In this document: in pieces, positions 197 through 32,000 of the stretch
Layout: each line of letters begins with the position of its first letter
How positions within the stretch are numbered: the stretch's first letter is position 1
DNA from: Verrucomicrobiota bacterium
Lineage (GTDB): Bacteria > Verrucomicrobiota > Verrucomicrobiia > Chthoniobacterales > UBA6821
Direction: 5' to 3'
DNA length: 32,000 bases
NCBI GenBank assembly: GCA_008932965.1
Contig: WBXG01000013.1
Coordinates: 344-32,343 of the forward strand
Notes under the pieces: model-generated
Told to the model about the DNA's origin: nothing
Databases searched by the model: none
The model's input: the letters and a program-made list of their open reading frames with translations, nothing else
Position numbers and translations under genes: made by a program

Positions 197-240
197 TTCG
201 GTTATTCCTTTCAAGAGTGGAGTGAATCATTCATTCCTCT

Positions 241-511
241 AGCCCGCATATTTCATACTGATTCCTTGCGAGGTGCCGCGAATCCTGATGGGGCACCACC
301 GGCGGTCAGGAGACCGCGGGGGAGACTGCCCTGGCTTTAAGTGGGCAGCCCTAAAAGGGCGAGACGAGCGGGAGCGAGCAAGTCAACGCAGGCGAGCATT
401 TTGATGCAGGGCTGTATGTGTACATACTGTCCAAATCAAAATGTGAGTCTAACGCAGCATCGATCTGACTTCTCGGCTTACGCAGTAGATCGGTATGAAA
501 TATCCGGGCTA
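241..511. mobile_element. MITE-like palindromic element, long variant carrying an extra insertion of about 85 bp in its left arm
   Basis: The left terminus is AGCCCGCATATTTCATACTGA (241-261) and the right terminus is GATCGGTATGAAATATCCGGGCTA (488-511). The interior 386-487 aligns with canonical copy 13898-14081. The extra segment at about 290-385 contains a module shared with 19141-19209. Confidence 0.8.
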
Positions 512-599
512 GGTTACCCATTTTACTACCATGTTTCTTAGCTTGGCAGCTGTAACACTCTGGAAAAGGGTATGACAGAGAGTCATTTTTTAATAAGAA

Positions 600-5374: not shown

Positions 5375-5742
5375 AAACTTTCAAACACCTGGCTCATCAG
5401 TTCTGTGAGAGAATCTAGTGCATTTGATAGCACAGAAGGGTCAATTTCTTGCTCTTCGAAGATAAAGTAGAATCCTAGGATATCGTCATGAAGCTGAGCG
5501 TGCAGAGGCTTAATTCTAGGTTCTTTAAAATGAGCACGAGCTAAGATTTTCCGAGCATTTAGCAAGTATGGATTTTCTACTTTTTTGCTTAGACCTATAA
5601 GAAAGTGAGGTGCTTTATGATCAAGCTGAAGAGTGCCAATGCTATCAATGATTAAATTTAAACTTGCTCCTTCTTCCATCGATACACCGGAAAGACCATA
5701 CTGTTGACAAAACTGTTGAACGGCATCTGTAATCATAGTCAT
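5371..5742 (-). CDS. Class I T3SS chaperone, SycN-like (CesT/SycE fold family)
   Basis: The protein is 123 aa and lies downstream of the gatekeeper gene, as sycN does. The segments VQQFCQQYGL and IGTLQLDHKA resemble the SycN N-terminal region as I recall it. It is acidic with a small alpha/beta-like pattern. Confidence 0.65.
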   Translation of the reverse strand: MTMITDAVQQFCQQYGLSGVSMEEGASLNLIIDSIGTLQLDHKAPHFLIGLSKKVENPYLLNARKILARAHFKEPRIKPLHAQLHDDILGFYFIFEEQEIDPSVLSNALDSLTELMSQVFESL

Positions 5743-5828
5743 TGATATAAAGAGTGTTGATCACTCTATTCTTAATTAAAGTTTGCTGGAAGCCTCTCTA
5801 TGAACTCCAATCTAAATGGTAAAGGGTT

Positions 5829-5850
5829 CACCTGAATATTTCATCCTAAT
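5829..5850. repeat. Solo terminal-repeat fragment of the MITE family
   Basis: CACCTGAATATTTCATCCTAAT matches the TIR core (C)C(C/T)G(G/A)ATATTTCAT(A/C)CT. It lies 6 nt before the full copy that starts at 5856. Confidence 0.5.
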
Positions 5851-5855
5851 TCTGC

Positions 5856-6037
5856 TAACCCGGATATTTCATGCTTATCTTGACTAAGAGGCCGCGAAGG
5901 CTGATGGAAGAGGGCACGTGATGAAGTCTGAGGACGGCTGTAGTAGTCCCTACTGGCCGAGGAAGACTTCGAACTCAAGCAGCATCGACCCTTGCTTTCA
6001 ACCACCACAGGTGATCAGTATGAAATATCTAGGCTAA
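5856..6037. mobile_element. MITE-like palindromic element (full copy, diverged interior), between the SycN-like gene and sctW
   Basis: The termini are TAACCCGGATATTTCATGCTTATC and GATCAGTATGAAATATCTAGGCTAA. The left arm GAGGCCGCGAAGGCTGATGG is identical to the canonical copy. The element is 182 bp. Confidence 0.85.
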
Positions 6038-6062
6038 GGCTTTAAAAGCTTATTACCCTCTC

Positions 6063-7259
6063 TCACGCGATCTCACTCTCTCGAGCAATGGCAGAATCTA
6101 AGGAGCATTGTATCGCTCTTAAGCAATTTTCTCGATTAGCGTCACTAGGAAAGATTCTTTCTGGAAAAAGCCTCATCATTTCATAAATACGAGTTAGGAA
6201 TTCAATGGAGAGTTGAAGTGGGGGAACAGAAAATTTTTCTGCAATACGCAAAAACTCATCATCTAGAAGTGTCTCTTTGGTCACACGCGTCAATATTTCA
6301 TTGATGAGTAGAGAAGGTTTCACAGGAATAACAGGGTTATTCATATTCATTTTTGTGAGCATTTGAAGAAATGAACGGTATGCATTACGAAAAAATTCTA
6401 TTTGACACAAGCCGTCCATAACACTTTTTAAAAATGAAGGTTCTAGAGAGGGAGCATTGGACTTTAATTCTGCTGCTAATGATTTCAAAAGAAACTCTAA
6501 TGCCTTCTCAAGGCGCTCCTGGCCTTCTTTTCCATCTGGCTCTTCCCCTTGTCCCTGCTTATTTTTTTTCTTGTTTTTATCCCTCTTCACTCGATCTAAT
6601 TCCGGAAAAGAATTCATGATAGTGCGATAGTTCGTTACTAAATCTTGATTGCTAAAAACGACCTGACAGTAAAAATCTCTGAGTGCAGCTACAAGATCGG
6701 CCTCATCCCCTATTGTTGATGCGGCAATTTGAGAAATATTGTATCCAGCTCGAATTTCAGCTCCATTAGACTCATCCAAATCACTCAGAATTTGTTCTAA
6801 TAATTCCTTAAGCAAGGGATCATCTAATTGGCTTTCAAGAACCTTAATAGCACCTTTGAGCGCTGCACTTTTTAAGGTGGGATCATCAAACAGAGAATCT
6901 AATGTTTGCTTGATCTCATCATAACTTCCGCCTCGTTGACTCCTTCTAATTTGAGCCATAAATTTTTTAAAATTAGGAGATTCGGAGAATTCTTCAAAAT
7001 CAGGAAGGCTTTCTTGCTCATCCTCAAATGCATTTTTCTCCTTTTTTTGAGAAGTGCTTTTGAGTTCGACTTTGCTGCTTGAGGCAGATTGCCCCCCACG
7101 ATCATCACCCTCATCATGAATTCCAAACTCAATATTATCATCAGCACGAGATTTTTTAATTTCCTTACCTCGATACAGCCCTACACCCTGTAAATCAGCA
7201 GTGTCGATTTCACCCCCTACAGGCCTTGATACACGAGCTTGAACCCTCGGATTCATCAT
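6063..7259 (-). CDS. sctW: T3SS gatekeeper SctW (YopN/CopN/InvE/MxiC family, TyeA-like part fused)
   Basis: The protein is 398 aa, about the combined length of YopN plus TyeA. The N-terminus is disordered and charged. A helical core follows (LKSAALKGAIKVLESQLDDPLLKELLEQILSDLDESNGAEIRAGYNISQIAAS), typical of the HrpJ/YopN family. A class I chaperone gene comes next. Confidence 0.8.
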   Translation of the reverse strand: MMNPRVQARVSRPVGGEIDTADLQGVGLYRGKEIKKSRADDNIEFGIHDEGDDRGGQSASSSKVELKSTSQKKEKNAFEDEQESLPDFEEFSESPNFKKFMAQIRRSQRGGSYDEIKQTLDSLFDDPTLKSAALKGAIKVLESQLDDPLLKELLEQILSDLDESNGAEIRAGYNISQIAASTIGDEADLVAALRDFYCQVVFSNQDLVTNYRTIMNSFPELDRVKRDKNKKKNKQGQGEEPDGKEGQERLEKALEFLLKSLAAELKSNAPSLEPSFLKSVMDGLCQIEFFRNAYRSFLQMLTKMNMNNPVIPVKPSLLINEILTRVTKETLLDDEFLRIAEKFSVPPLQLSIEFLTRIYEMMRLFPERIFPSDANRENCLRAIQCSLDSAIARESEIA

Positions 7260-7262
7260 CTC

Positions 7263-7652
7263 TTAAGGACTCACTATTTTTGTGATCTGAAGAGAGGGGA
7301 CTCCCTCCACCAAAATTAAATCGGCTTGAGCAATAGTTTTTTCTTGAAGCATCACGGATGCTTCAAATTGAGAACCTCCAAGAGAAATCACTTTTCCCTC
7401 TACAAGGGAGTTGAGCTCCTCCATAGGAATCATTTGATTTCCTAATACAAAAGATAATTCCACTTTCAATTGGAGGGAGGTGCTAGGCTCTTTTGATAAT
7501 TCTTGAGGTGCTACTTCCTTTGGAGGTGAGGTTATTATCTGAGGCTTGACCTCAGGTGATTCTATTTCAGTAGAAGTTTCCTTACTCTTCAATAAAACCT
7601 CATCTGGTAATTGTTCTACTAATTCTGGTTTTGTATCATCAGGATTTGCCAT
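7263..7652 (-). CDS. Stand-alone SpoA (FliN/SctQ C-terminal) domain protein
   Basis: The protein is 129 aa. The N-terminal half is Pro/Glu/Ser-rich. The C-terminal ~70 aa (LKVELSFVLGNQMIPMEELNSLVEGKVISLGGSQFEASVMLQEKTIAQADLILVEGVPSLQITKI) has the FliN/SpoA pattern. Its stop codon (7263-7265) lies 3 nt upstream of the sctW start. Confidence 0.7.
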   Translation of the reverse strand: MANPDDTKPELVEQLPDEVLLKSKETSTEIESPEVKPQIITSPPKEVAPQELSKEPSTSLQLKVELSFVLGNQMIPMEELNSLVEGKVISLGGSQFEASVMLQEKTIAQADLILVEGVPSLQITKIVSP

Positions 7653-7720
7653 GCGCTAACAAATATCTCACTTTCTTCAAGAGGTCAAAAATTATAGTCA
7701 AATTACTCATCTCGGATAAC

Positions 7721-7820
7721 TAACCCAGATATTTCATCCTAAATCGTTATGAGTCGTCACATAGCCAGATTGAGGACCAATAGGGGTCGTGAGATAACGC
7801 TGGGATCGCTCCTAACTTCA
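7721..7820. repeat. One-sided MITE-family fragment (left terminus plus diverged arm), second subfamily
   Basis: TAACCCAGATATTTCATCCTAAATCGTTATGAG matches the family TIR and the arm start of 19107-19140. No right terminus is present. The distal part aligns with the reverse complement of 1-71. Confidence 0.55.
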
Positions 7821-7869
7821 CCAATAGCCGTTTGACTATCGGACTCAAAACACGATTTTCAAACCTCTT

Positions 7870-8529
7870 TTATTGAGGTATTGAAAGTAACTTCTTTTGC
7901 TTCTGAGCTATCATTCTCTTTCTTACTCGGTTCCAAATTGGAAATTTTTCAAAGCGACTATTTCGATGAACTTCTGCGTAAATGAAAAAAACTCCATTAT
8001 GCTCATAAGATTCAATCTCTCCTAAAATACGATTATAAAAAGTAATGAGGTTTTCCATTTTTAGATTATTTTTATTTTCTTTGATATTGAAATTCTTATC
8101 AATATTCCCTCCCACATAGTTGATGCCTTCGCACTCGTAACGAGTAAAAGCAAAAAACTCTGTTATTCCAAATAGAGGTGATAGCATTTTTGGCCCCTCC
8201 TCCCTTTTCATAAAACAGACGGCTAAATCATGAGGAGTTGGCTGACGAAAAACAATACGAAGTCCACTCATGGAGACTTGAGAAGCCAACCAGTCTGAGT
8301 CTGTATATTGAGGGTATAACGGATAATCCACTACAGTATAGCCATAGGCAACTAAAGCACGGGCCATAGGACTTTCGCCTGGATTTGAACGAAAGGCTTG
8401 TTCTTGAAAACGCTCATTTAATTCTTTTCCAATGGGACTTTTAGGTACCAGATTTTTTGCTGAAGAATAAATCTGAGGCTTCCGATTGGCACTGGCAGCA
8501 GTAGTGGAATTGTTAATATCAAGTTTCAT
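7870..8529 (-). CDS. Hypothetical protein embedded in the T3SS locus (candidate secreted substrate or accessory factor)
   Basis: A 219-aa ORF lies 52 nt downstream of sctU on the same strand. The first 50 aa are Ser/Thr/Asn/Lys-rich with no TM helix or Sec signal. I did not recognise the globular C-terminal part. Confidence 0.6.
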   Translation of the reverse strand: MKLDINNSTTAASANRKPQIYSSAKNLVPKSPIGKELNERFQEQAFRSNPGESPMARALVAYGYTVVDYPLYPQYTDSDWLASQVSMSGLRIVFRQPTPHDLAVCFMKREEGPKMLSPLFGITEFFAFTRYECEGINYVGGNIDKNFNIKENKNNLKMENLITFYNRILGEIESYEHNGVFFIYAEVHRNSRFEKFPIWNRVRKRMIAQKQKKLLSIPQ

Positions 8530-8581
8530 AATTTTTAAAAATAAATGAACCCGCCTACAGGGTGAAGGAGGTGTGAAAAGT

Positions 8582-9646
8582 TCACTCTGCTACGCGTGGC
8601 GGCAGAGTTCTGACCCAACGTAAGATTTCAGTCACTGGCTCAAGAAGACTTTTGGGAATGATATCATTGACCTCAAGTTCATTGTAGAGAGCTCGTGCTA
8701 AGGGAACATTCTCAACAATGGGAATATTCTCTTCGCGCGCTACAGAAATCATCCTTAATGCAATAAAGCCACTTCCCTTTGCCCTTAAAACTGGCAGCGG
8801 GGTTTTGCCTCTTTCATAATAAATTGCAGCTGCATAGTGAGTCGGGTTGGTTACAAGCACTGTAGATTTACGGGTTGCTGTGGAGGTATCTTCAAAGATC
8901 ATTTCGCGTTGCAGACGACGCCGATTCCCTTTGATTTGTGGATCTCCTTCCATATCGTGCATTTCACGTTTTGTCTCATCCTTAGTCATTCTGAGCTCTT
9001 TTAAGAGCAGTTTTTTTTGAATAATAAAATCAAAAAGAGCAATAACGACATAAATGGCCATGAAAGAGCCAATGAAATTTAACAACATAGGTTGAACAAC
9101 ATCTAAAGAATTCATCAGGGTTGCAAAAGGTAATGTTGCCAAAGGCCCTATTGATTTTGAAATAATAAAACAGAGAAGAATACCAAAAATGCTGAGCTTG
9201 ATCGTTGACTTTACTAGCTCAAAGAGTGTTTTCATTGAAAAGATTTTTTTAAATCCACTCATAGGACTTATCTTATTTATGTCAGGTTTGAGGGGGTCCA
9301 ATGAAAATAGAAAACCAAATTGGCCTACATTAGCAATAATCACTGCGATTGCAGCAACAATGCAGACTGGATACATGGAGGAGATGAGTTGAGGGATAGA
9401 CAATTCTAACATATTCAACATTGAATTATTGTTAGGACTAGAAATTGCTAAAAAAACAGCATCAAAGAATTTGATGAGTGATTTATAAATATCCCCAAGA
9501 GTTAAATAAATTGTTTCTAATACAAAAAAAGTACTAACAGTAGTGACAACATCTGTGCTTTTAGCAACTTGTCCCTTTTCTCTAGCGTCGCTGAGACGCT
9601 TCGACGTGGGCTCCTCTGACTTTTCTCCACTTGGTTGATCAGCCAT
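8582..9646 (-). CDS. sctU: T3SS export apparatus switch protein SctU (YscU/CdsU)
   Basis: The protein is 354 aa. The N-terminus GEKSEEPTSKRLSDAREKGQVAKS is typical, and four TM segments follow. The NPTH autocleavage motif is present (VLVTNPTHYAAAIYY). Confidence 0.96.
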   Translation of the reverse strand: MADQPSGEKSEEPTSKRLSDAREKGQVAKSTDVVTTVSTFFVLETIYLTLGDIYKSLIKFFDAVFLAISSPNNNSMLNMLELSIPQLISSMYPVCIVAAIAVIIANVGQFGFLFSLDPLKPDINKISPMSGFKKIFSMKTLFELVKSTIKLSIFGILLCFIISKSIGPLATLPFATLMNSLDVVQPMLLNFIGSFMAIYVVIALFDFIIQKKLLLKELRMTKDETKREMHDMEGDPQIKGNRRRLQREMIFEDTSTATRKSTVLVTNPTHYAAAIYYERGKTPLPVLRAKGSGFIALRMISVAREENIPIVENVPLARALYNELEVNDIIPKSLLEPVTEILRWVRTLPPRVAE

Positions 9647-10421
9647 GGAAAAGCCCCTTTAAAAAAAGTGCGACTCCGGTAGTCGTGAATAGTTCATGCT
9701 GAAATCCCTCGATAAGGTAACGCATATAAAATGGTAAAAAAATAAAACAAAGTCCGCTTTTGATAGGAAGGGAGATAAAAAAAACATTTAGCTGCGAAAC
9801 AAAACGATTCGCTAAGCCGAGCCCAAAATCCATAAAGAAAAAAATAATTAATAAAGGGGCCGAGTAAAGAATTCCAAGTTCAAAAACTTTTGTAAAAAAA
9901 GGAAATACTAATTTTTGCCAGCCAATGGAAAATGGAGGAAAGAGCTTATCAACCGGATAGGCCTGATAGCTTGCAAACATAATCTCTAACAAGGAGAGAA
10001 AACTTCCTGTAGAAAAAAAGAAATAACTGACAATACGCAAAAAGAGTCCACCAATGGGGGATTCTTGAGCTCTTAACATTGGATTATAGATTCCCCCGGC
10101 AGTGGTGCCACGCTGAAGATCGATGAGCTCACCTGCAATTTCAATTCCCCAAAAAATAACGGAAACAAAAAAAGAGATGATAATGCCTAAAAAAATTTCT
10201 TTAACTATAAGGATTGCTATTAAGAACAAATCTAATTTTTCAAGCGAAATCATAGGAGATGTCATGGGAACAACAATCCCTACTGTAATGATTAAAAAAA
10301 CCTGTCTAGGCAGACCACTTGCAGAAAAAAAAGGAACAATGGTCAATACAGTCCCAAAGCGAACTGATCCAAGAGCTAACAACATGGGAGCTTGGATCAT
10401 TAACTGAGTAATATCACTCAT
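9639..10421 (-). CDS. sctT: T3SS export apparatus protein SctT (YscT)
   Basis: A 260-aa polytopic membrane protein between sctS and sctU. It overlaps sctU by 8 nt. The FliR/SctT-like hydrophobic pattern is present. Confidence 0.9.
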   Translation of the reverse strand: MSDITQLMIQAPMLLALGSVRFGTVLTIVPFFSASGLPRQVFLIITVGIVVPMTSPMISLEKLDLFLIAILIVKEIFLGIIISFFVSVIFWGIEIAGELIDLQRGTTAGGIYNPMLRAQESPIGGLFLRIVSYFFFSTGSFLSLLEIMFASYQAYPVDKLFPPFSIGWQKLVFPFFTKVFELGILYSAPLLIIFFFMDFGLGLANRFVSQLNVFFISLPIKSGLCFIFLPFYMRYLIEGFQHELFTTTGVALFLKGLFHG

Positions 10422-10464
10422 ATCAAGACCATTTTATGCAAGAATAGAATCCCATAACGTTTAG

Positions 10465-10737
10465 TTAATAATTCAACATGGATGGAAAATCCCGAAAAGA
10501 AATTATTGCAAAGTTCAAAAGATCTCCAAAAACATAATTCATTGCGTAAACAATTACTAAAAAAGTGGCTATAATTTTTATTGCAAAGGGAAGCGTCTGA
10601 TCTTGAATTTGAGTGAGCGCTTGAAATAAAGCCACCAATAAACCTACTGCAGTAGCCATAATAATAGGAGGAAGTGATGATGTTAGAACGAGTAACATCG
10701 CCTGAGAAACAAGATTTACAGAGACATCTTGATTCAT
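10465..10737 (-). CDS. sctS: T3SS export apparatus protein SctS (YscS)
   Basis: The product is 90 aa from the internal Met (MNQDVSVNLVSQAMLLVLTSSLPPIIMATAVGLLVALFQALTQIQDQTLPF...), a FliQ/SctS-like two-helix hairpin. The longer 114-aa ORF form would overlap the sctR 3' end by 64 nt. Confidence 0.88.
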   Translation of the reverse strand: MNQDVSVNLVSQAMLLVLTSSLPPIIMATAVGLLVALFQALTQIQDQTLPFAIKIIATFLVIVYAMNYVFGDLLNFAIISFRDFPSMLNY

Positions 10738-10745
10738 AACATTCT

Positions 10746-11405
10746 TTAGGAAATTCGGTACGTCATAATTAATCCATCCATGAGACGTGTCCAGCCGTCG
10801 ACAAAACAAAAAAGAAGCAACTTGAAAGGGAGTGAAATCGTTGTTGGTGACAGCATCATCATTCCCAGTGCCATAAGAATATTCGAAATCACGAGATCGA
10901 TAATAATAAATGGAAGATAAAGAATAAATCCTATCTGAAAAGCTGCGGTTAGTTCAGAAACAAGAAAAGAAGGAACTAAAATAATAAAATCTTTTTGTGA
11001 AACGGTACTTCCATATTTAGGGGGCCAGAGGCGTTTTGCGGTAACGACAAAGAACTTCTGAACACTCATTTTACTGTTATTACTTAAAAAAGTCTCTATT
11101 GGCTCCTTAATAGAATTCACCATCGGCCCGATACTCGCTAGGGTCACATTAGAAATGTTTAATTTTTCGCTCAAATAATAGGTGTCAGAAAGAACAGGAA
11201 ACATAACGTAAATCGACAAAATAATCGCCATTCCATTAAGAACCATATTGGGTGGGCTAGATTGAAGGCCCAATGCTGTTCTCACTAAACTAAAAACAAC
11301 AATTACTTTTGCAAACGAAGTAACCATCACAGCAAGAAATGGAATCATTGCAATTGCAACCAAAACCAAAATCATCTCCAGAGGATTTCCAATATTAAAA
11401 TTCAT
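10746..11405 (-). CDS. sctR: T3SS export apparatus protein SctR (YscR)
   Basis: The protein is 219 aa with FliP/SctR-like sequence (FAKVIVVFSLVRTALGLQSSPPNMVLNGMAIILSIYVMFPV). It overlaps sctQ by 4 nt. Confidence 0.95.
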   Translation of the reverse strand: MNFNIGNPLEMILVLVAIAMIPFLAVMVTSFAKVIVVFSLVRTALGLQSSPPNMVLNGMAIILSIYVMFPVLSDTYYLSEKLNISNVTLASIGPMVNSIKEPIETFLSNNSKMSVQKFFVVTAKRLWPPKYGSTVSQKDFIILVPSFLVSELTAAFQIGFILYLPFIIIDLVISNILMALGMMMLSPTTISLPFKLLLFCFVDGWTRLMDGLIMTYRIS

Positions 11406-12466
11406 TTTATGAGGTTAAGTTGAGTAATAAAAACCGCATGCTGTCCATGGAGTTCTACTAATTCTCCAGCACCAATACATGCTCCATGAGCATAAATTTT
11501 CAATGGATTACTAACTGTCGTGGTATCTGGTATTTTTAATAATTTAGCACCATGGGTGATCTCATCCTTTGTTAAAAAAAGTCTACCGGCACTGAATGAG
11601 AGCTCTCTATTGACACGTTTTTCTAGCGAAGCAAGCTCGTCTTCTTGAACATTTTCTTTTTTTTCTAATTCTGGGGTCTCTTTTGGTATCAATGGAGAAA
11701 TAACTATTTTTTCTAGGGGACGAATTAGGGAATTGAGTTTTTTTTCACCAAGTGAAATCGGCAGGCGTTGATTATTACCAAAATGAAAAAAAACTTCCCC
11801 TGTTACCAATGCGGATGGTTCTTCAAAAAAAACAAGGTCCCCTAATGTAAGTTTATTAAATTGAAGCGGGGATACTTGTGTCGTACCAATAACAATTTCT
11901 CCCTGAAAAGGAAATTGATTAAGATCGGAACGTATTGCACGTGGGAGTGTTGCAGCCATTGCAAGAAGCTTTTCAAGCAACACGCTGGGAAGTTTTATTG
12001 CACCATAGATTTCAACTAGGGAATCCTTATTTAGAACTTCAAAGCAGAGGTTTTGTTCTCCTTCTACGGCATCATCGCCGTCCTCTTTCTCTTCGGCTTT
12101 TCTTAATGAAACCGGTAACTGAAAAAAACTCTCTACGAGTTGAAGTATTTTTTGACTGCAAAAAGCTATTACTGCATCCAGGAAATCCTTGGGAATAGAC
12201 TCCTTGCCACCAAATTGTGAAAGGCTTTTAGTAATGTTACTTTCTATTGTCGGTTTTAGTGCTATGTCGATGTGGTGATGATCTATCTCCAAGGGGAGGT
12301 GAAAGTCAAATGATTCATTACAATTCACTGCAGGAAAAACAAATCGGAGTCGTTGAGAAAAATCTTTTTTAGAAAGTGGAAAAAATCTTTTAGAAAAAAT
12401 TAATTCTTCATAAACCGCCACATCACTTTGAGAAAATTCAAGAGGCCTATAGGGTATCTTTATCAT
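11402..12466 (-). CDS. sctQ: T3SS sorting-platform/C-ring protein SctQ (YscQ)
   Basis: The protein is 354 aa and sits between sctP and sctR. The C-terminal SpoA-like domain is ELSFSAGRLFLTKDEI...IYAHGACIGAGELVELHGQHAVFITQL. A second SpoA-like segment lies around aa 185-240. Confidence 0.85.
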   Translation of the reverse strand: MIKIPYRPLEFSQSDVAVYEELIFSKRFFPLSKKDFSQRLRFVFPAVNCNESFDFHLPLEIDHHHIDIALKPTIESNITKSLSQFGGKESIPKDFLDAVIAFCSQKILQLVESFFQLPVSLRKAEEKEDGDDAVEGEQNLCFEVLNKDSLVEIYGAIKLPSVLLEKLLAMAATLPRAIRSDLNQFPFQGEIVIGTTQVSPLQFNKLTLGDLVFFEEPSALVTGEVFFHFGNNQRLPISLGEKKLNSLIRPLEKIVISPLIPKETPELEKKENVQEDELASLEKRVNRELSFSAGRLFLTKDEITHGAKLLKIPDTTTVSNPLKIYAHGACIGAGELVELHGQHAVFITQLNLIK

Positions 12467-13850
12467 CGTTTAAGTGCCCTCTATTTTCTTGATTCAAGCT
12501 TGCAAAATCATTTTCAGCCTCTCTTTGATTACTAAATTCTGAAGATGATGATGAAGGTAGAAATTGAGTTTTTACCTCAACTGTTTGCCCAGAACAAAGA
12601 GTAGCAAGATGATTCTGAAGTGTAGCAATATTGGCATTGAGCAAATCATTACTTGCAAGACTTCTGGTAGAGAAAAAAACCTCCATTTGTTCTGTATTTG
12701 CATTAATATGAACAGTGGTTGCATCAAGAACGTCACTACGAAACTGGAATGAAATATCTTGGCCATTAGAACTATTAAGGCGTGCTCGATCTACGGTAGA
12801 TGTGAGTTCACTTAAGAAGGTGGATACATTACCAGTACGTATAGCACTTGCCAAAGAAGCAGGAATCTTTCCTCCAAGTGCATCTGACGAGCCTATGGAT
12901 CCTTCATTTTTAAAATTAGAAATAGACTGATTTGCCAAAGAGGAAGTAGAAAATCCTGGGACCTCATCTAGGGAACTCAATTTATTCTCATTGAATTCTT
13001 TCATAGTTGTTGCACTCTCACCATCAGAAGCAGCATTCGTATCGAGGCCTTGCGAAAGACTGGGAACACTGGGAAGACTACTCACAACCTCATCAATAAG
13101 AGCATTGGTATCGGGGCCTTGCGAAAGACTGGGAAGACTACTCACAACCTCATCAATAAGAGCATTGGTATCGGGGCCTTGCGAAAGACTGGGAAGACTA
13201 CTCACAACCTCATCAATAAGAGCATTGGTATCGGGGCCTTGCGGAAGACTGCTTGTGCCATCGTCTTTAAAGGAAGCCGAGCTTAGAGAGGCCATTGCTG
13301 CTGATAAAAGAGTTGAAAGGTCTTCTTTATTTTCATCGAGTATTGAAACAGTTACAGTATTTATTCCCATGCCGGCTCCTTGAAGAGAAAAAGCCCGTTC
13401 TTTTTGAGGATGATCATCATCTCCATCATCACTTTTTACTTTGAGAAAATCGCTTTTTTCATCAACATCCTCGACATCATTTTGATGAGAAGAGGAGGAA
13501 GCTGCCAACTTTTTCTGATGAACAGCAGATGATGATTTTAATTGGGAAGTGTTAAAATTGCTCTGATCTTTTTTCTCTGTGTTATCTTCTGCAATAGCCT
13601 TATTGTTATAACTTCTATTGCTTGAAGACTCCAAGGAGTTCTGAAGATTATAGAGACTGTACGATTCCTCCACAGGCTTGGAAGAATGAATCGTAGCAGA
13701 GGAAACCTCTGATTTGGACTGGGTCTGATAAGCTTTTGTTGCTCGTATAGTACTCATGGTTTTAGAACTACTATCGCATTCCGTTAGTAGTAAGAGACAC
13801 CACATTAAAAAGGTGCGAAATGAGAATGACAACACTCTTATTAACGTCAA
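12447..13850 (-). CDS. sctP: T3SS needle-length ruler / substrate-specificity switch protein SctP (YscP/FliK-like) with internal tandem repeats
   Basis: The gene sits between sctO and sctQ. The protein is Ser/Asn-rich and looks disordered, with 3.5 copies of a 20-aa repeat. The C-terminal segment (VHINANTEQMEVFFSTRSLASNDLLNANIATLQNHLATL...VEVK) fits a T3S4/FliK C-terminal-like domain. The start is more likely Met32 at 13757, because the first 31 codons look non-native. Confidence 0.7.
   Translation of the reverse strand: MTLIRVLSFSFRTFLMWCLLLLTECDSSSKTMSTIRATKAYQTQSKSEVSSATIHSSKPVEESYSLYNLQNSLESSSNRSYNNKAIAEDNTEKKDQSNFNTSQLKSSSAVHQKKLAASSSSHQNDVEDVDEKSDFLKVKSDDGDDDHPQKERAFSLQGAGMGINTVTVSILDENKEDLSTLLSAAMASLSSASFKDDGTSSLPQGPDTNALIDEVVSSLPSLSQGPDTNALIDEVVSSLPSLSQGPDTNALIDEVVSSLPSVPSLSQGLDTNAASDGESATTMKEFNENKLSSLDEVPGFSTSSLANQSISNFKNEGSIGSSDALGGKIPASLASAIRTGNVSTFLSELTSTVDRARLNSSNGQDISFQFRSDVLDATTVHINANTEQMEVFFSTRSLASNDLLNANIATLQNHLATLCSGQTVEVKTQFLPSSSSSEFSNQREAENDFASLNQENRGHLNDDKDTL
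13033..13250. repeat. Perfect 60-bp in-frame tandem repeat inside sctP (about 3.5 units)
   Basis: Positions 13081-13140 and 13141-13200 are identical. Positions 13201-13250 are identical except for 1 nt. The unit at 13033-13080 carries a 9-nt internal duplication. The encoded repeat is SSLPSLSQGPDTNALIDEVV. Confidence 0.95.
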
Positions 13851-13897
13851 TGAGAAAATGGGAACCGATCTATAATTATTGACGCATTATTTTCATT

Positions 13898-14081
13898 TTA
13901 ACCCGGATGTTTCATACTGATCGTGACGAGGAGGCCGCGAAGGCTGATGGGGTAAGGCAGGCGAGCATTTTGATGCAGGTCTGTATGTGTCCCTACTGCC
14001 CAAATCAAAATGGGAGTCTAACGCAGCATCCATCTGACTTCCCGGCTTCCGTAGTAGATCAGTATGAAATATCCGGGTTAA
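13898..14081. mobile_element. MITE-like palindromic element, canonical full copy, between sctO and sctP
   Basis: The left end is TTAACCCGGATGTTTCATACTGATC and the right end is GATCAGTATGAAATATCCGGGTTAA. The two 90-bp arms are imperfect reverse complements of each other. The element is 184 bp. Confidence 0.9.
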
Positions 14082-14135
14082 GGTCATGATTTTTCATGAA
14101 AGAAATGATCAGCATTTTTTCTTTGCCCCCTATTT

Positions 14136-14633
14136 TTATTCACCTTTGTTTACCCCGCCCATTGCAAACATGGTAGCAGCTATTTCCTCTAGATCAGATT
14201 CCTCTTCATATTCATCACGTAACATTTCCTCTTTCATCCAAAAATCACGATGTTGATCTATTTTCCAAACTGCTTTGTATGCCTCCTCTTGGGCTTGGAG
14301 ACAGGCAGCTGTCTCTTCTTTTGCAGTTTCTAATTTTTTATGAGCTTCCTCAACTTGGACAACATAAGTCGATTGCTGAGATCGATTCCAACTGATTTGG
14401 TGAGTAATATCGGTAACTTTTTTAATAGGGTTAATCGTACCAAGAACTGCTTTAAAAAGACGATCTGCCTCATTGTTCATCCATGTTAAATAATCCTCAA
14501 GACTCTTCTGGGCTCGTTGCACCTCTTCTTCTAAACGTGCTTGATAGGAACGAGCCGAAGCAAGCTTGCGCTGCGCCTCATCCTCTTTACGCATTCGTAA
14601 TAATCGAATAGACTCAAGCGGATAAGCCTTCAT
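14136..14633 (-). CDS. sctO: T3SS stalk protein SctO (YscO/FliJ-like)
   Basis: A 165-aa, highly charged coiled-coil protein. It overlaps the sctN stop by 4 nt (ATGA). The position matches yscO. Confidence 0.75.
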
Positions 14634-16030
14634 CGAACAATAGTATCTAATTTTTTAATAGTTTCTTCAAAAGTAGAGCGATCTCCCAGGCCTTGCCGCA
14701 AAAATGCATCCATGACTTCTTTTTTGGCAATAGCCTCGTCGGTGATAGGATCATTTCCCGCTTTGTATTCTCCAATTTTAAGCAGCAGCTCTGCCTCTTG
14801 ATATTTGGAAAGAAGCTCACGGAATTTGCCAGCAGCACTTAAATGCTTGGGTTGAGAAACCTGCGTCATCACACGACTAATGGATGCCAAAACATCAATA
14901 GCAGGATAATGATTAGCTGCTGCAAGTTTGCGGGAGAGAATAATATGACCATCTAGGATCGATCTCACCTCGTCTGCCACTGGCTCATTCATATCATCTC
15001 CCTCCACAAGGACCGTATAAAGGGCTGTAATAGAACCTACGATACCGGGACCAGCACGTTCTAAAAGTTGAGGTAAAATAGAAAAAACAGAGGGAGGATA
15101 ACCACGACGTGCTGGAGGTTCACCTGTAGCCAAGCCAATAACACGCTGAGCTCGAGCAAAACGGGTTACTGAATCCATCATCAAGAGAACCTTTTTTCCT
15201 TGGTCCCTAAAATATTCTGCTATCGCCGTTCCGACGTAAGCAGATTTGAGGCGCTCTAGCGCAGGCCGATCGGAAGTGGAAACAACCATCACGGTTTTTT
15301 TTCTATTTTCGGGAGTTAACGTCATCTCTAATGTTTCTCGTACTTCTCGACCCCGCTCACCGATAAGCACCATGACCACTACTTCTGCTTCAGTATTACT
15401 AATAATCTGAGATAAAAGTGTGGATTTACCACCTCCAGCAGCAGCAAAAATGCCAACCCGTTGTCCTTGACCACAGGTTAACAATCCATCAATACTCCGA
15501 ATTCCAAGTGATAATGGTTCTTTAATGAGTGAACGTTGGAGAGGATCAGGAGGATCAGCAGTAACGTTATAATAGGTTTCAGGAATAAATACTTCTTTAG
15601 AATTATCCATGATTCTTCCGAGACCGTCTACAACACGTCCCATTAAACCAGGACCAACACCTACCTGAAGAACTTTACCAGAGGCAATCACTTCTGTGGT
15701 CAAGGAGAGGCCAGTGAAGTCACCCAAAGGCATAATCAAAGCACTATCACCTCTAAAGCCGAGCACCTCTGCATCGAGCGGTTCCTTGATTCCAGGTCTT
15801 CTTAGTTCACACAATTCACCTATTTTACTATCTGGTAAAATAGCTTTCACCAGCATTCCAACAACTTCTGTAATTTGACCTCGTAGGGGTTTAGGCTCGG
15901 TAACCAGGGCTATAGATTGGAGCTTCGTTAAGAAATCTTCTCCCATTGCATGATAACAGGGAACCACCACCGAGGAAGTTTCCTCCGAAGTGTGAGCATT
16001 TGCTGAGGTAGTCGATGTTTGTTCCATCAT
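14630..16030 (-). CDS. sctN: T3SS ATPase SctN (YscN/CdsN)
   Basis: The protein is 466 aa. Walker A is [14 protein letters not shown] and Walker B is [15 protein letters not shown]. The sequence is F1-beta/FliI-like throughout. Confidence 0.97.
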
Positions 16031-16083
16031 GAGTGGTTTTTATAAGAGCTCATTGTGACAATCACTCCTTTTTTCAAAAATAT

Positions 16084-16746
16084 TTATACTGATTCTGCTG
16101 AGGCTTTCAAAAGGGATGACTCAAGAATGGCCAGCTGACTTTCAAGAGAAGCATCTACTAAACCTAAAGGAGATTCTAATACGCACGAATTAGGAGCTAA
16201 TTCTTCACGTGCCCTCACTTCTATTTTAGAGCCTTCAGGCATCAGCTGTTGCAACTTTGGCATGACTGCATCAACGGCCTCTCGATCTTGAGGATGAATT
16301 TGAAGCACGATCCGTGGCTGCTGTTTTACTTCATCAAGTGCCTTACCAATCAATTGATAAAATCGATCCTCAGGAGGTAGATCAAGGATGAAGTGCCGCA
16401 TACAACTAATAACAACACCCACCAATTGATTTCGTGATCGCTCGAAATAATCTAGTGAAGCTAAGACTGTTTTAATATTATGTGCTGCTGCTGCTGCTCT
16501 CCCTTCACTCAGGCCCGTCTCGTAGCCTAATTTTTTTTGGTTTTCAAATTCCTTCTTTGCATTTTCCTCCATCACCACAACACGAGCTCTTCCTTTCTCC
16601 ACTAGGTCACTAGCTTGCAAACAAATGGCTAATTCTTGTTGAGTCAGCACTGGACCTCGTAGAAGGTAACTTGGTAAATCTTTATCCCATTGTAGTAATG
16701 AGGAAGCGATTGGAGAGGGTGCAGTCTCTATATTCATGAATTTCAA
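16084..16746 (-). CDS. sctL: T3SS stator / ATPase regulator SctL (YscL/FliH family)
   Basis: A 220-aa protein directly upstream of sctN. It has a FliH/SctL-like C-terminal pattern (IVLQIHPQDREAV...CVLESPLGLVDASLESQLAILESSL). Confidence 0.8.
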   Translation of the reverse strand: MKFMNIETAPSPIASSLLQWDKDLPSYLLRGPVLTQQELAICLQASDLVEKGRARVVVMEENAKKEFENQKKLGYETGLSEGRAAAAAHNIKTVLASLDYFERSRNQLVGVVISCMRHFILDLPPEDRFYQLIGKALDEVKQQPRIVLQIHPQDREAVDAVMPKLQQLMPEGSKIEVRAREELAPNSCVLESPLGLVDASLESQLAILESSLLKASAESV

Positions 16747-16861
16747 TGATGATGAGTCTATTCAACCTTGTGTGTTGTTGAATACTTAAAGTGGAAGAGG
16801 AATCGACTGGCACATGAAAAAGTGATTTCATGGTGCAGCATCCATAGATACTCGAGTGAAT

Positions 16862-17668
16862 CTATAACCATGATCCAGCCTCCCTCCAGAGTGCACAAAG
16901 AATTTTTTCTGCTACTGAAGCCGATGGAAGGGGAGCATCACAATATCCATGCGCAAAAGATCCTGGAAATTTTGTAGCTATACGCTCTTGAATTCCTCGT
17001 TCTTTGGATGAGAAAGCCTGTTGCACAATCATAAGAGCTCCTTGATGAATAGCCTCAGAAATATCATTTTGTGCAAGCGTGGAAAACTCTAAGTGTACTG
17101 ATTCGAGAAAGTATTTTAATGAAGCGTTCGTTAAGAGAACAAATTGAAAAATATCCTCCCCTATCTGTTTTCGAAGTTTTCTTACAATAGCACCATCGAT
17201 GATTTGAGTTATTTCATTCTTCATTGAGCAAGAAGCACTCAAGAAGGCTAATCTTCGAAATCGACCTGGGGGCATCATAGCTAAATTCCAGAGTGGATCC
17301 TCTGGAGACCAAGCCACGGAGGAACTCCAGGACAGTTGAGATTTTAAAAGTGGATCCACATAGGCACTAACTCGAGAATCCGTTAAAAAGATCTTGAATA
17401 GAGAGCCAGGAAAAAAAGAAGTTAATAGCTCAAAAGAAGCATGACGTAGAGGTGAATTATTCCAATAAATCCATTGATCAATAGCAGAAGCGGCAGCCTC
17501 TCTTTTTATCCAAGCGTCAAGAAGTTCATCACTCCAAAGGTGAGAGCTGCTGCTTGGGACGATCTTGTTAAGATCCGAAGATTCTAGTGTGGAGTTCATT
17601 CCTGCTTCTTGGTTTATCCAAAGGGCCTTGCTTTTGAAACGTAAATCTGAAGTGGTTTTCGCGTTCAA
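16862..17668 (-). CDS. Probable sorting-platform protein SctK (YscK position)
   Basis: A 268-aa soluble protein between sctJ and sctL. The assignment rests on synteny. The sequence is poorly conserved, as is usual for SctK, and the start is uncertain (an alternative is Met24). Confidence 0.5.
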   Translation of the reverse strand: MNAKTTSDLRFKSKALWINQEAGMNSTLESSDLNKIVPSSSSHLWSDELLDAWIKREAAASAIDQWIYWNNSPLRHASFELLTSFFPGSLFKIFLTDSRVSAYVDPLLKSQLSWSSSVAWSPEDPLWNLAMMPPGRFRRLAFLSASCSMKNEITQIIDGAIVRKLRKQIGEDIFQFVLLTNASLKYFLESVHLEFSTLAQNDISEAIHQGALMIVQQAFSSKERGIQERIATKFPGSFAHGYCDAPLPSASVAEKILCALWREAGSWL

Positions 17669-17748
17669 TCCAGCTGAAAAATTTCCTTAACAAACTTTCT
17701 TTTCTTTCTTTCGAAATCCAAAAACAGTTTGGAATGGGTGAAGCTGGA

Positions 17749-18606
17749 TTACGTTTTTTCTTCTGTATCAGTGGAGGAGATGACCGGAGGTGATACCGTA
17801 AGAGTTGGAACGGAGAGAGGAGCATCCGGAGGATTTTTATTTTCTGATACGATCTCTGATTTCTTATTCAACAATTCCAAAACAATTTTTTTTCCAAAAA
17901 TAACAGCCACTACAAGAGCAATACTGATAAAAATAAATCCTAAAATCACGAACCAGAAATTCCACAAAGCGGACTTAGGAATTTTGATGCCAAAGAAAGA
18001 GACCTCTTGCTGCACATTCACAGGATAGTAGTAGTCAATGCTCTCGGACTGAACAATAACAACAGAAACATTATCGTAGTTGAGACCTTCAACACTCTTC
18101 ATCACCAGCGTTTTGATTTGAGGCACTAAAGTCGGAGGAACACTCCCTGGTCGGAACTTGAGAAAAACAGAGGCAGAAGAGGGGGTTAATGTTTCTGTGT
18201 AGGGATCATTTTTAGGTAATACTAAAGAAACTCTTGCAACTAAGACTCCATCAATGTGACTGAGGGTTTCTGAAATCTGCTGACTTAAGGCATACATAAA
18301 GCGAATTTTTTCTTCGCTTGGCGAGGAGACAATTCCTGTTTTTTTAAAAACTTCACCGATACCAGAAAATTTCTCGGATGGTATGCCATACCATTTTAAC
18401 AAGTCTGTTGCAGCAGCGAACTGCTGCCTTGGAACGGAGATTGAAAATAAATTTTCTTTCTGCGGTGTCTTGACCGCTTGAATATTTCTTACCAAAAGAA
18501 GCCCCATCATTGTATTGGCATCTGATTCTGATAAATTGGAATAGAGAATTTCCGGGCCACATCCTACAAGCATCAAGCAACCTAGGAGCACCACAAGAAA
18601 TTTCAT
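17749..18606 (-). CDS. sctJ: T3SS inner-membrane ring lipoprotein SctJ (YscJ/CdsJ)
   Basis: A signal peptide with lipobox (MKFLVVLLGCLMLVGC) appears from the Met at 18606; the ORF could extend to 18648. A YscJ/FliF-like periplasmic domain is present (LLVRNIQA...GVLVARVSLVLP). A C-terminal TM helix follows (FWFVILGFIFISIALVVAVIFG). Confidence 0.9.
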   Translation of the reverse strand: MKFLVVLLGCLMLVGCGPEILYSNLSESDANTMMGLLLVRNIQAVKTPQKENLFSISVPRQQFAAATDLLKWYGIPSEKFSGIGEVFKKTGIVSSPSEEKIRFMYALSQQISETLSHIDGVLVARVSLVLPKNDPYTETLTPSSASVFLKFRPGSVPPTLVPQIKTLVMKSVEGLNYDNVSVVIVQSESIDYYYPVNVQQEVSFFGIKIPKSALWNFWFVILGFIFISIALVVAVIFGKKIVLELLNKKSEIVSENKNPPDAPLSVPTLTVSPPVISSTDTEEKT

Positions 18607-18671
18607 ATAAAATTTCCCTTCAAGCAGTAAATATTTGAATCGTTTCACTCAATTAAAAAATAGAAGCTTTC

Positions 18672-19106: not shown

Positions 19107-19391
19107 TTAACCCGAATATTTCATACTGAATCGTCATGAGGCGCCGCGAATCCTGATGCAGAAACCACTGGCGGTCGGGAGACCGCGGTGGAGACTGCCC
19201 TGGCTTTAACCCGCATATTTCACACTAAATCTATTACGGCTTGTGGAAAGCTCCTCATTACTGCGTTGGTCTCGAATTGTGATTTGGACAGTATGAAACA
19301 TACAGCCCGGCATCCCAATCCTTTGCCCGCCTTGTACTAATAAGCTTTGCACGGCGCCTCATGACACTTCAGTATGAAATATCCGGGTTAA
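19107..19391. mobile_element. Composite of two MITE-family units: a half element plus insertion module (19107-19209) abutting a full inverted-orientation copy (19210-19391)
   Basis: TTAACCCGAATATTTCATACTGAATCGTCATGAGGCGCCG lies at the left and its complement CGGCGCCTCATGACACTTCAGTATGAAATATCCGGGTTAA at the right. An internal second terminus CCCGCATATTTCACACTAAATC starts at 19210. Positions 19141-19209 match 272-340. Confidence 0.85.
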
Positions 19392-25476: not shown

Positions 25477-26535
25477 ATGGCCATACATTTTTTGAGTCAC
25501 CTTTTGGAAACCATCACCCCTTATTATACGATCATTTGGTTTGTGCTCGTAGGTGCTCTCTTTACGGGTTACTCCATGTTAGATGGATTTGATTTAGGAG
25601 TAGGTGTACTGCACCTCTTAGTTTCAAAGGATGAAGAGAGGCGCATTTTTCTCAATGCAATCGGTCCTGTCTGGGATGGTAATGAAGTCTGGTTAGTGGT
25701 TGGGGGAGGTGCTCTCTTTGCTGCTTTTCCGGGCGCCTATGCAACGGTCTTTTCTGGTTTTTACATGCCCTTTATTTTTCTCTTAGTCTTCTTAATTTTT
25801 AGGGCCGTTGCTATAGAATTTAGAAGTAAGGAACCGAGCACCTTGTGGAGGCAAACGTGGGATCATCTTTTTGCAGTAGGAAGTATTCTTGCTTCCTTCA
25901 TGCTGGGAATCACCCTAGGGAATCTTACACGGGGAATTCCCCTTGATGCAGAGGGAGAATTTATAGGTACTTTCTGGGATCTATTAAATCCTTATAGTCT
26001 CTTTATGGGGGTCACGGTGGTAGTGCTCTTCGCGATGCATGGATCCATTTACTTAGTGATGAAAACCGAGGGAGCCTTGCAAGAACGAGTAAAATCCTGG
26101 GTGCCCTACCTTATTCTTCTTTTTGTTGCTTGTTATTTCATTTTTAATTTTTCAACGCTTATCGTTGCACCTCATCTTGCTGAGATAGTATTTTCTCGGC
26201 CATGGATATTTGGAGTTTTAGGCTTAGACATGTTTTTCCTTTGGAAAGTTTGGACCTTCGTAAAGCAAGGCAAAGAGCTCCTTGGGTTTCTTTGTTCCTG
26301 CATCATGATGGCCTTGTTGCTTGCTACTTTTGGTCTTACTTACTATCCAAATATGGTTCTTTCTCACCCCCATCCCGAAAACAGCGTTACTATTTTTAAT
26401 GCTGCTTCTACCTCAAAAACATTAGGCCTTCTCTGTGTTATTGTTCTGCTAGGTATTCCAATGGTTGTCAGTTATACAACAAGTGTCTACTGGATATTTC
26501 GAGGAAAGACACGATTAACCGACACGAGTTACTGA
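25477..26535 (+). CDS. cydB: Cytochrome bd ubiquinol oxidase subunit II
   Basis: A 352-aa polytopic protein downstream of cydA. It has a CydB-like N-terminus (YSMLDGFDLGVGVL...GPVWDGNEVWLVVGGGALFAAFP). Confidence 0.92.
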   Translation: MAIHFLSHLLETITPYYTIIWFVLVGALFTGYSMLDGFDLGVGVLHLLVSKDEERRIFLNAIGPVWDGNEVWLVVGGGALFAAFPGAYATVFSGFYMPFIFLLVFLIFRAVAIEFRSKEPSTLWRQTWDHLFAVGSILASFMLGITLGNLTRGIPLDAEGEFIGTFWDLLNPYSLFMGVTVVVLFAMHGSIYLVMKTEGALQERVKSWVPYLILLFVACYFIFNFSTLIVAPHLAEIVFSRPWIFGVLGLDMFFLWKVWTFVKQGKELLGFLCSCIMMALLLATFGLTYYPNMVLSHPHPENSVTIFNAASTSKTLGLLCVIVLLGIPMVVSYTTSVYWIFRGKTRLTDTSY

Positions 26536-26695
26536 TCACCTGCGAAAGCCGGGAAGTTAGACGGATACTGCGTTCGGCTCCCATTTTGAATTGGGGTCGG
26601 TGACTCATACAGCCCAGCATAAAAATGCTCGCCTGCCTTACCCCATCAGCCTTCGCGGCGCCTCGCGACGAATCAGTATGAAATATGCGGGTTAA
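26515..26695. mobile_element. MITE-like palindromic element (inverted orientation) wedged between convergent cydB and the 1156-aa gene, overlapping both 3' ends
   Basis: The right terminus is TCAGTATGAAATATGCGGGTTAA (26673-26695). The left arm TACTGATCACCTGCGAAAGCCGGGAAGT starts at 26530, preceded by a degenerate TTAACC at 26515. The interior aligns with the reverse complement of 13898-14081. Confidence 0.85.
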
Positions 26696-30143: not shown

Positions 30144-30189
30144 GAAAATCTCTGCTAAAAAACGATGCTAGGAGTGGAACAAAAAGAGT

Positions 30190-30371
30190 ATACCCGGATA
30201 TTTCATGCTAATCGTGGCGAGGAAGCTGCGAAGGCTGATGGGGCAAGGTAGACATGTATTTTGATACAGGGCTGTATGAATCCCTACAGCCCAAGTCAAA
30301 ATGTGAGTCTCATGCAGTATCCATCTGACTTCCCGGCTTACGCAGGTGATCGGTATGAAAAATCCGAATAT
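30190..30371. mobile_element. MITE-like palindromic element (full copy) in the divergent intergenic region
   Basis: The left end is ATACCCGGATATTTCATGCTAATCG and the right end is GATCGGTATGAAAAATCCGAATA. The interior is GCGAAGGCTGATGGGGCAAGG...GGGCTGTATGAATCCCTACAGCCC...CATCTGACTTCCCGGCTTACGCAGG, collinear with the canonical copy. Confidence 0.85.
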
Positions 30372-30575
30372 AGGTTAAAGATTCTGTGCTGAAGATGAAA
30401 TCTAAAAAACAGAGAGCATTCTGGCATATCTCCTCTTTCCAAAATAATGAGACTCACTGAGGTGTTATTTTTGGGTGATAGAATCATTGGGATATTTTAT
30501 TGTGAGATGTAAAAATTAAAACCTACTCATCGATAAAAAAATCTTTAGGAGAGAGGGTAGAATCTTTAGGCTAGT

Positions 30576-31847: not shown

Positions 31848-31883
31848 AGCTTTTCTTAATTTGGATATTGCAGGCCGGGCTGG

Positions 31884-32000
31884 CCCGAATATTTCACACT
31901 AAATCTATTACGGCTTGTGGAAAGCTCATCATTACTGCGTTGGTCTCGAATTGTGATTTGGACAGTATGAAACATACAGCCCGGCATCCCAATCCTTCGC
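31884..32000. mobile_element. MITE-like element, inverted-orientation copy truncated by the window end
   Basis: My manual alignment finds 114 of 117 positions identical to 19210-19326. The copy starts with CCCGAATATTTCACACTAAATC. Confidence 0.85.

Follow-up and report, generated by a model that had tools for sequence, protein, structure and literature searches.

Here we describe a family of short palindromic repeats in an uncultured Verrucomicrobiota genome and propose that they are non-autonomous MITEs, mobilised in trans by the DDE transposase of an insertion sequence (IS) of the IS1380 family. Judging from the sequences compared, we put the probability of this reading at about 0.9. The repeats were studied in a 32,000-nt stretch of DNA (the window, meaning the whole stretch at its full length), in genomes of related Verrucomicrobiota and in public metagenomes. 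Searches of the window by blastn with the canonical copy (13898-14081), and then with nhmmer profiles, recovered copies of the element at seven clear sites together with fragments, which are as follows.

239..512, plus strand: long-type copy with a 266-bp core (243-508), flanked by CTAG (239-242) and CTAG (509-512)
about 295-384, plus strand: extra internal module of the copy at 239..512, ~90 bp, found again in the window at 19164-19209
5830..5854, plus strand: lone degenerate terminus CCTGAATATTTCATCCTAA with 3 mismatches, a weak match (nhmmer E about 1) adjoining the copy at 5855..6037
5855..6037, plus strand: full copy with a 175-bp core (5859-6033) and a direct, non-palindromic CTAA/CTAA duplication, between a SycN-like chaperone gene and a CopN/SctW-like gene
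7721..7771, plus strand: truncated copy, a terminus and about 30 nt (nhmmer E = 1.6e-4)
13898..14081, plus strand: canonical copy with a 176-bp core (13902-14077) and TTAA/TTAA, frame 0 stop-free in both orientations, between YscO-like and SctP/HpaP-like genes within the T3SS cluster
19107..19205, plus strand: left part only of a long-type copy, a terminus and the internal module, ending at the TTAA that took the next copy
19206..19391, minus strand: full copy with a 178-bp core (19210-19387) and TTAA/TTAA, nested in the element at 19107..19205
26515..26695, minus strand: full copy with one terminus decayed, recovered by blastn/nhmmer and a terminus scan
30189..30372, plus strand: full copy with a 176-bp core (30193-30368) and an off-consensus TATA/TATA duplication, in a divergent intergenic region
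31880..32000, minus strand: incomplete copy that runs off the window end, with 97% identity to 19210-19326

An earlier sequence-only reading had proposed a recurrent full-length element family, and this is borne out by both blastn and nhmmer. The window copies can be aligned end to end at 67-95% identity, beyond the termini alone, and the 19-nt terminus CCCGNATATTTCATACTGA occurs 14 times in the window at up to 3 mismatches, against 0.03 occurrences expected from shuffles. The copies cover about 1.46 kb, or 4.6% of the window, where roughly 5% had been estimated. Some of the units first delineated had to be redrawn. The copy placed at 241-511 is real but represents a longer subtype with the extra module, not the standard unit; about 19 module-bearing copies of 257-295 bp occur in the MAG loci described below. 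The composite read as two units at 19107-19391 is likewise real, but consists of the left part of a long-type copy and a full copy nested at its internal TTAA. The fragment claimed at 7721-7820 is significant solely over 7721-7771, that at 5829-5850 corresponds to the weak lone terminus listed above, and a supposed fragment at 1-71 gained no support (nhmmer E = 0.6). Every window copy is intergenic or overlaps only the final 6-7 codons of genes, as the same reading held; this is true of the window and false for the family, which has in-frame genic copies in related genomes. Two convergent neighbours, cydB at 25477-26535 (+) and a gene at 26673-30143 (-), take their final 6-7 codons and their TGA stop from the copy at 26515-26695. 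For both genes the TGA falls inside the terminal repeat ...CATACTGA, and the native C-termini of the products, cytochrome bd subunit II and a 1156-aa deacetylase-glycosyltransferase (GT2), are replaced. No transposase was detected in the window by Pfam searches of 20 ORFs or by tblastn with the IS1380 transposase, in agreement with the initial observation.

Positions 933-18648 of the window hold a complete non-flagellar T3SS cluster from a Chthoniobacterales-like uncultured genome of about 41% GC. The window genes include those for SctD, SctV, a TPR chaperone, a SycN-like chaperone, CopN/SctW, SctQ-like proteins, SctU, SctT, SctR, SctP/HpaP, YscO and SctN, and the cluster is followed by genes for a phosphoketolase, acetate kinase, cytochrome bd, the deacetylase-glycosyltransferase and a MacB-type permease. 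A tRNA-Ser at 107-196 (107-193 in the Rfam match) is the only match in the window at Rfam gathering score. In the T3SS cluster, SctD has an FHA domain and the CopN-like gatekeeper is an HrpJ-TyeA fusion; both traits are typical of chlamydial systems, and the cluster hints at a host-associated lifestyle. Within the gene at 12447-13850 (-), which encodes the SctP/HpaP-like protein, a 60-bp tandem repeat at 13068-13251 (3.1 copies, 99% identical) gives rise to 20-aa repeats. Exactly one 60-bp unit is missing from L092, a contig with 99.7% identity to the window, which makes this a copy-number polymorphism. The SctP/HpaP family acts as the needle-length ruler in other T3SS.

The core of the element measures 176 bp in 37 of 101 copies and ranges overall from 162 to 295 bp, with a minority of about 260-295 bp, and the 19-nt terminal inverted repeats (TIRs) are kept in all subfamilies. 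There is no transposase gene within the element; its small size, its TIRs and a duplication of fixed length are among the features by which MITEs are recognised. The sole open frame of the element comes without a start codon or RBS context and is represented only by short ORF calls annotated as 'hypothetical'. At the lower extreme, a 58-bp 'mini' element (L036 7391-7448) contains little beyond two termini back to back (CCGGATATTTCATACTGATCGCGAC...GTCACGATCAGTATGAAATATCCGGG). The imperfect inverted-repeat arms and the single long hairpin described from the window sequence were both recovered: the arms of the canonical copy are about 69% complementary, and it folds as one hairpin in RNA (-93.6 kcal/mol, z = -10.5) and in DNA (-47.5 kcal/mol, z = -9.4). 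The subfamilies differ at up to 81 of 184 positions, and the arms are complementary within each of them. RNAalifold on 78 copies recovered just the termini and the tip, because the arms of different subfamilies do not align column by column, and it was replaced by an arm-swap folding test. In this test the folding energy was -96 to -110 kcal/mol for matched arms, -71 to -80 kcal/mol for arms that had been swapped and -78 kcal/mol for a natural chimera. The matching of the arms would stem either from selection on the hairpin, acting on DNA during transposition or on RNA, or from homogenisation between the arms. A search of the element against Rfam 15 returned nothing at gathering score (best 21.7 bits against a cutoff of 81, E = 0.29), and a scan of the element for promoters and terminators gave no signal above chance.

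The wider scan for copies that the sequence-only reading had called for revealed many of them in four MAG species and in public metagenomes, including filled and empty orthologous sites. The terminus pattern was sought in 185,579 species genomes, from which at least 84 loci were taken; among the matches listed, nearly all lie in four Verrucomicrobiota MAGs (Kiruna_bin-02438, Tobar2m-G38, Deming_bin.170 and SMAG_U8253) that carry the labels Chthoniobacterales or 'Spartobacteria'. In these 84 loci and the window (583 kb in all), nhmmer found 199 non-overlapping hits comprising full copies and fragments, 88 of them full length. The element accounts for 2.3-6.4% of the fetched DNA per MAG, values that are biased upward since the loci were picked for containing termini. 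Contigs 99.3-100% identical to parts of the window were recovered from GCA_029981535.1 (an NCBI metagenome assembly), from JGI metagenomes and from a Logan assembly. The comparative data consist of MAGs and metagenome contigs, and such assemblies break at repeats. The identity of copies to their nearest neighbours reaches 98%, with a median of 93%, which may be given in support of recent activity of the family. Lone termini in a Coxiellaceae MAG (L051) and a Saprospiraceae MAG (L023) have neither element body nor transposase and were set aside as chance matches or relics.

Two further observations concern contigs outside the four MAGs. Homology between the window and two same-species contigs (L086 and L087, 99.3% identical) ends exactly at window position 19107, which corresponds to position 3331 of L086/L087: these contigs share the phosphoketolase side and the composite element with the window and then diverge at the outer end of the element. 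In a third contig (L089 1008-1293) a similar element is joined to yet another neighbour. These junction differences reflect either recombination between copies or assembly chimeras at repeats. In metagenome contigs of about 60% GC (L094, L095, L099, L102-L105, L107, L108, L110, L111, L113, L114, L120-L122 and L124-L127), the same 20-nt terminus is attached to a different module of ~120 nt (CCCGGATATTTCATACTGAGCTTGAATCCGCGACAG...), for which no second matching terminus was found within 3 mismatches. The module probably represents a further non-autonomous family that makes use of related IS1380-type transposases.

The flanks of the element were analysed in 101 copies with both termini, drawn from the window and the four Chthoniobacterales MAGs. 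In 66 of the 101 copies, the same 4-mer stands immediately outside CCCG...CGGG on either side (TTAA 34, CTAG 21, CTAA 9, TTAG 1 and GTAA 1), and other registers (1-3 and 5-8 nt) gave 0-1 matches. The initial reading had noticed TTAA at the ends and offered two explanations for it, a target-site duplication or a part of the repeat. The informative non-palindromic flanks are direct in 11 copies and inverted in none, which excludes TTAA from the inverted repeat. A single subfamily (subfamily 4) contains both TTAA and CTAG flanks (8 vs 5), so the flank is not tied to the lineage of the element. The four outermost bases represent a 4-bp target-site duplication with the consensus YTAR, lying outside the repeat, and the order of target preference is TTAA most, then CTAG, then CTAA/TTAG. 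The non-identical flanks of the remaining 35% of copies require decay or recombination between copies.

Comparison of orthologous loci provided filled and empty sites. A low-molecular-weight phosphatase gene (LMW-PTP) of the Kiruna MAG contains a 184-bp copy (L021, 225 aa) and its Tobar ortholog (L012, 149 aa) is without the insert; the two proteins align gap-free once the element and 4 bp are removed. The Kiruna PheT has 849 aa against 789 aa in its nearest ortholog, to which it is 91% identical over aligned columns, and the gap is exactly 60 residues, with the junction GAGE|LIEK in the 789-aa protein and GAGE|L-(59 aa)-ICG|LIEK in the 849-aa protein. PheT with the insert is also present in an independent cluster (P0205, about 90-93%; 849 aa, 7 member sequences). 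The spacer between sctV and sctD carries a ~270-bp copy in the Kiruna MAG (L054), compared with 12 bp in the window. Exact-protein look-ups of three window proteins, directed at strain-level empty sites, gave no matches. Three other PheT orthologs from Chthoniobacterales (P0209, P0219 and P0225) have unrelated insertions of 41-68 aa elsewhere (alignment columns 130-197, 350-396 and 613-653), which may stem from other insertion elements. The MITE interpretation offered for the window thus withstood each of the three checks laid down beforehand: the copies align beyond their termini, Rfam yields no family for them, and further copies exist together with presence/absence differences.

A transposase flanked by the same termini, which the sequence-only reading had suggested looking for, was found outside the window and belongs to an IS1380-family IS. 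For this search, a metagenome collection was scanned for termini with C or G as the next base, which is almost absent at that place in MITE copies; the scan yielded 35 loci. In one of them (L118), termini at 128(+) and 1700(-) delimit an element of 1573 bp, whose ends read CCCGCATATTTCATACTGAG... and ...CATTAATATGAAATATGCGGG and which has CTAA/CTAA on its flanks. The termini of the IS, CCCGNATATTTCATAYT (17-19 nt), are the same as those of the MITE. Its single ORF (291-1604, 437 aa) matches NF033539, 'IS1380 family transposase', at 400.6 bits (cutoff 180, E = 6e-120), and PF13701 at 543 bits (cutoff 34.7, E = 3.9e-163). With a length of 1573-1575 bp, one ORF, short TIRs and 4-bp CTAA or TTAA repeats, the partner has the characteristics of the IS1380 family. 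The L118 IS is inserted inside a long-type MITE, splitting GGGCAGCC-CTAA-AAGGGCGAGAC, and the same sequence is continuous in the window copy at 239-512, so that for the IS itself one site is filled and its counterpart is empty. A second intact IS lies at 9905-11479 of a 270-kb contig (L129), with TTAA/TTAA and an 80% identical transposase, and more diverged IS1380-type genes with the same terminus occur in two further loci (L119 and L098, 64% and 42% identity). In the Kiruna MAG, which is rich in MITEs, a contig (L057) terminates in an IS end of 87% identity that directly follows a TTAA. Close relatives of the transposase number in the thousands in metagenomes, mostly on contigs of ~1.5-2 kb, as expected for a collapsed repeat.

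Only the terminal 17-19 nt are common to the IS and the MITE, so the MITE did not arise from the IS by deletion alone. The link between the two is drawn from their common termini, their common duplication and their co-occurrence, which together point to the IS1380-type transposase as the probable mobilising enzyme. Neither the window nor the few contigs recovered from the same species yielded a full IS, and no transposase lies between termini in the 84 genome-contig loci. Two candidate parent elements with termini paired 0.3-4 kb apart (L079 and L063) were rejected, as they enclose only housekeeping genes. An IS30-like gene (L086 9286-10044, HTH_38 + rve) was likewise rejected as a partner, being a truncated remnant cut by a MITE copy at 10022-10206; it is broken after its DNGKEF motif and ends at a TGA within the MITE terminus.

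The length of the element has consequences for the genes that receive it, since one insertion of the 176-bp class adds exactly 180 bp. In this class, frame 0 (TTA ACC CGG ATA TTT CAT ...) is stop-free in 29 of 37 copies in the forward and 27 of 37 in the reverse direction, and no copy is open in any other frame. The consensus sequences of all four subfamilies can be read without a stop in both directions; the classes of 177-182 bp are not frame-preserving. Long ORFs run through at least 10 copies in related MAGs, and through none in the window, and keep their Pfam domains intact to either side of the insert. The hosts are the following.

PheT: insert between the tRNA_bind and B3_4 domains
GlnD: insert between the HD and ACT domains
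further hosts: an AddB-like nuclease, PriA, an OprB porin, two PMT-type glycosyltransferases, a type I dehydroquinase and LMW-PTP

When the copies were excised in silico, 13 of 101 proved to lie within long ORFs, compared with 69.5% of random YTAR sites, and 10 of these 13 are read through. The simplest reading is survivorship, in which disruptive insertions are purged and frame-0 insertions are tolerated. A search with a peptide profile for insert-bearing host proteins returned only spurious ORFs of up to 107 aa, from a candidate list that favours short proteins.

These results can be assembled into the following model. The IS1380-type transposase would bind the termini common to the IS and the MITE, cut at the CCC/GGG ends and integrate with a 4-bp stagger at YTAR, and the interior of the MITE would be a separate palindrome with arms of ~85 bp. 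Insertion at a YTA leucine codon would leave the host ORF intact and longer by 60 residues, and such copies would persist in genes, essential ones included. Insertion in either of the other two frames would introduce a stop within the terminus, with survival only between genes or at the extreme 3' end of a gene. The location of all window copies between genes or at gene ends is consistent with the fate predicted for other-frame insertions.

Other sources of mobility were weighed against this model. The YTAR target is identical to the 5'-YTAR-3' logo reported for IS5 of E. coli, which also generates a 4-bp duplication (PMC5009759), and the duplication alone cannot name the transposase family because both features are common to IS5, the candidate considered first on account of this logo. 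Mobilisation by an IS5-family transposase is nevertheless very unlikely, given that IS5 differs in its termini and transposase type, that about 0.9 Mb of fetched loci contains no IS5-type gene with these termini, and that the transposase genes bounded by the termini in those loci are all of the IS1380 family and show the same YTAR duplications. The repeats might instead be REP/BIME or IS200/IS605-type palindromes moved as single-strand hairpins by a Y1 (RAYT/TnpA) transposase, as the whole element is a hairpin and a Y1_Tnp-like gene is found near the IS in L129. Such systems are not known to have target duplications or terminal inverted repeats (for REP features, PMC3733652); here the 4-bp duplication and the 19-nt TIRs are clear and the element measures 176 bp, compared with 20-40 bp for REP palindromes, which leaves this explanation hardly any weight.

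Mobility itself might be incidental if the repeats were kept chiefly for a function as structured RNA or DNA, for example as terminators, as hairpins that stabilise mRNA, as RNase III sites or as small RNA genes. The great stability of the hairpin, the co-variation of its arms between subfamilies and the placement of several window copies inside or at the ends of T3SS operons would fit such a role, but complementary arms are common in MITEs, the Rfam, promoter and terminator searches gave nothing above chance or cutoff, and copies occur in both orientations and within coding sequence. The duplications, the presence/absence differences and the autonomous partner explain the distribution without function, and we regard a primarily functional element as improbable. 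A comparably small probability attaches to the in-frame copies being artefacts, either mis-assembled MAG contigs or pseudogenes that are open by chance. The data do come from MAGs, and frame 0 is open in most copies anyway, which makes read-through weak evidence of translation. Against this, the PheT allele with the insert recurs in the independent cluster with its several members, and PheT is essential; the domains are intact on both sides in PheT, GlnD, the AddB-like gene, PriA, OprB and LMW-PTP; and 10 of 13 genic copies are in the tolerated frame, where about 1/3 would be expected. Mobilisation by an IS1380-type transposase, followed by the loss of disruptive insertions, thus remains our preferred account.

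The family shares traits with several known groups of elements. ERIC/IRU, Correia (CREE), RUP and Nezha elements are also imperfect palindromes of 100-200 bp with TIRs and short duplications. They are linked to other transposase families and make mostly TA duplications. These elements are mostly intergenic and co-transcribed with their neighbours, and are occasionally intragenic with ORFs (PMC10969869); no report of them in Verrucomicrobia was found in the literature searched. The partner IS resembles members of the IS1380 family such as IS1380, IS1247 and ISEcp1 in passing NF033539, in its size of ~1.57 kb, and in its single ORF, short TIRs and 4-bp duplication; the MITE is a non-coding derivative, not an IS. 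Duplications in the IS1380 family range from 4 to 5 bp and its members measure about 1.5-2 kb. IS1247, for example, makes a 5-bp duplication (PMC3281130). The strict YTAR/TTAA preference and the CCC...GGG ends are described here for the partner IS and are not known to hold throughout the IS1380 family. The piggyBac transposase is regarded as a distant relative of IS1380 (PMC10140906), and piggyBac and its MITEs have a 4-bp TTAA duplication and CCC...GGG terminal bases as well. We note this as a resemblance and no more: piggyBac belongs to eukaryotes, its DDD transposase measures about 600 aa, and it is strict for TTAA, whereas the elements described here also use CTAG, CTAA and TTAG.

The closest parallel in behaviour is provided by the Rickettsia palindromic elements (RPEs; Ogata et al. 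2000), palindromes of ~150-180 bp with many copies, a sizeable share of which lie in frame in unrelated housekeeping genes (PMC10969869). As in RPEs, the in-frame copies, at least 10 of them in related MAGs, encode a conserved peptide, as peptide alignments show, and keep the ORF open, a likeness of behaviour. Unlike the RPEs of Alphaproteobacteria, the present elements reside in Verrucomicrobiota, have clear 19-nt TIRs, a YTAR duplication and a candidate transposase, and can be translated in both orientations. To our knowledge, no partner or mobilising transposase is known for RPEs. The literature searched, with incomplete coverage, contained no matching MITE in Verrucomicrobia, no link between a MITE and IS1380, and no occurrence of the terminus sequence. 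We rate the family as undescribed and of a known kind, its MITE architecture, hairpin, in-frame insertion and YTAR target each being known elsewhere. What adds interest is the combination of RPE-like behaviour with an identifiable transposase, and the tie of a MITE to the IS1380 family, of which no published example was found in the literature searched. With termini, target, transposase candidate and filled and empty alleles of an essential gene in hand, both mobilisation and its consequences for proteins can be tested.

For its hosts, a poorly known and uncultured lineage of Chthoniobacterales carrying a T3SS, the family accounts for about 4-6% of the DNA in the fetched genome parts, which are loci chosen for their termini, and it explains assembly fragmentation and apparent rearrangement at these sites. 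Whether selection has also acted on the coding properties of the element was approached in two ways. If the sites at which subfamilies differ were changed at random, both frames would stay open with P = 0.02 and 0.21 in two independent comparisons, and the excess of stop-free copies among intergenic ones is not significant (19 vs 15.0 expected; 16 vs 13.5). These values, together with the lack of frame preservation in the 177-182-bp classes, are at most suggestive of an element that is itself selected to be translatable. We put forward, as a tentative idea that we hold to be possible and do not favour, that the MITE lineage is not just a tolerated parasite and has been shaped by selection to be 'coding-compatible', with 60 codons that are stop-free both ways across subfamilies. 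If this were true, it would represent a second, independent origin of the phenomenon seen in Rickettsia palindromic elements, here with an identifiable transposase (IS1380, piggyBac-like, TTAA), and the family would be able to colonise and persist in essential genes and would act as a recurrent source of new 60-residue protein segments.
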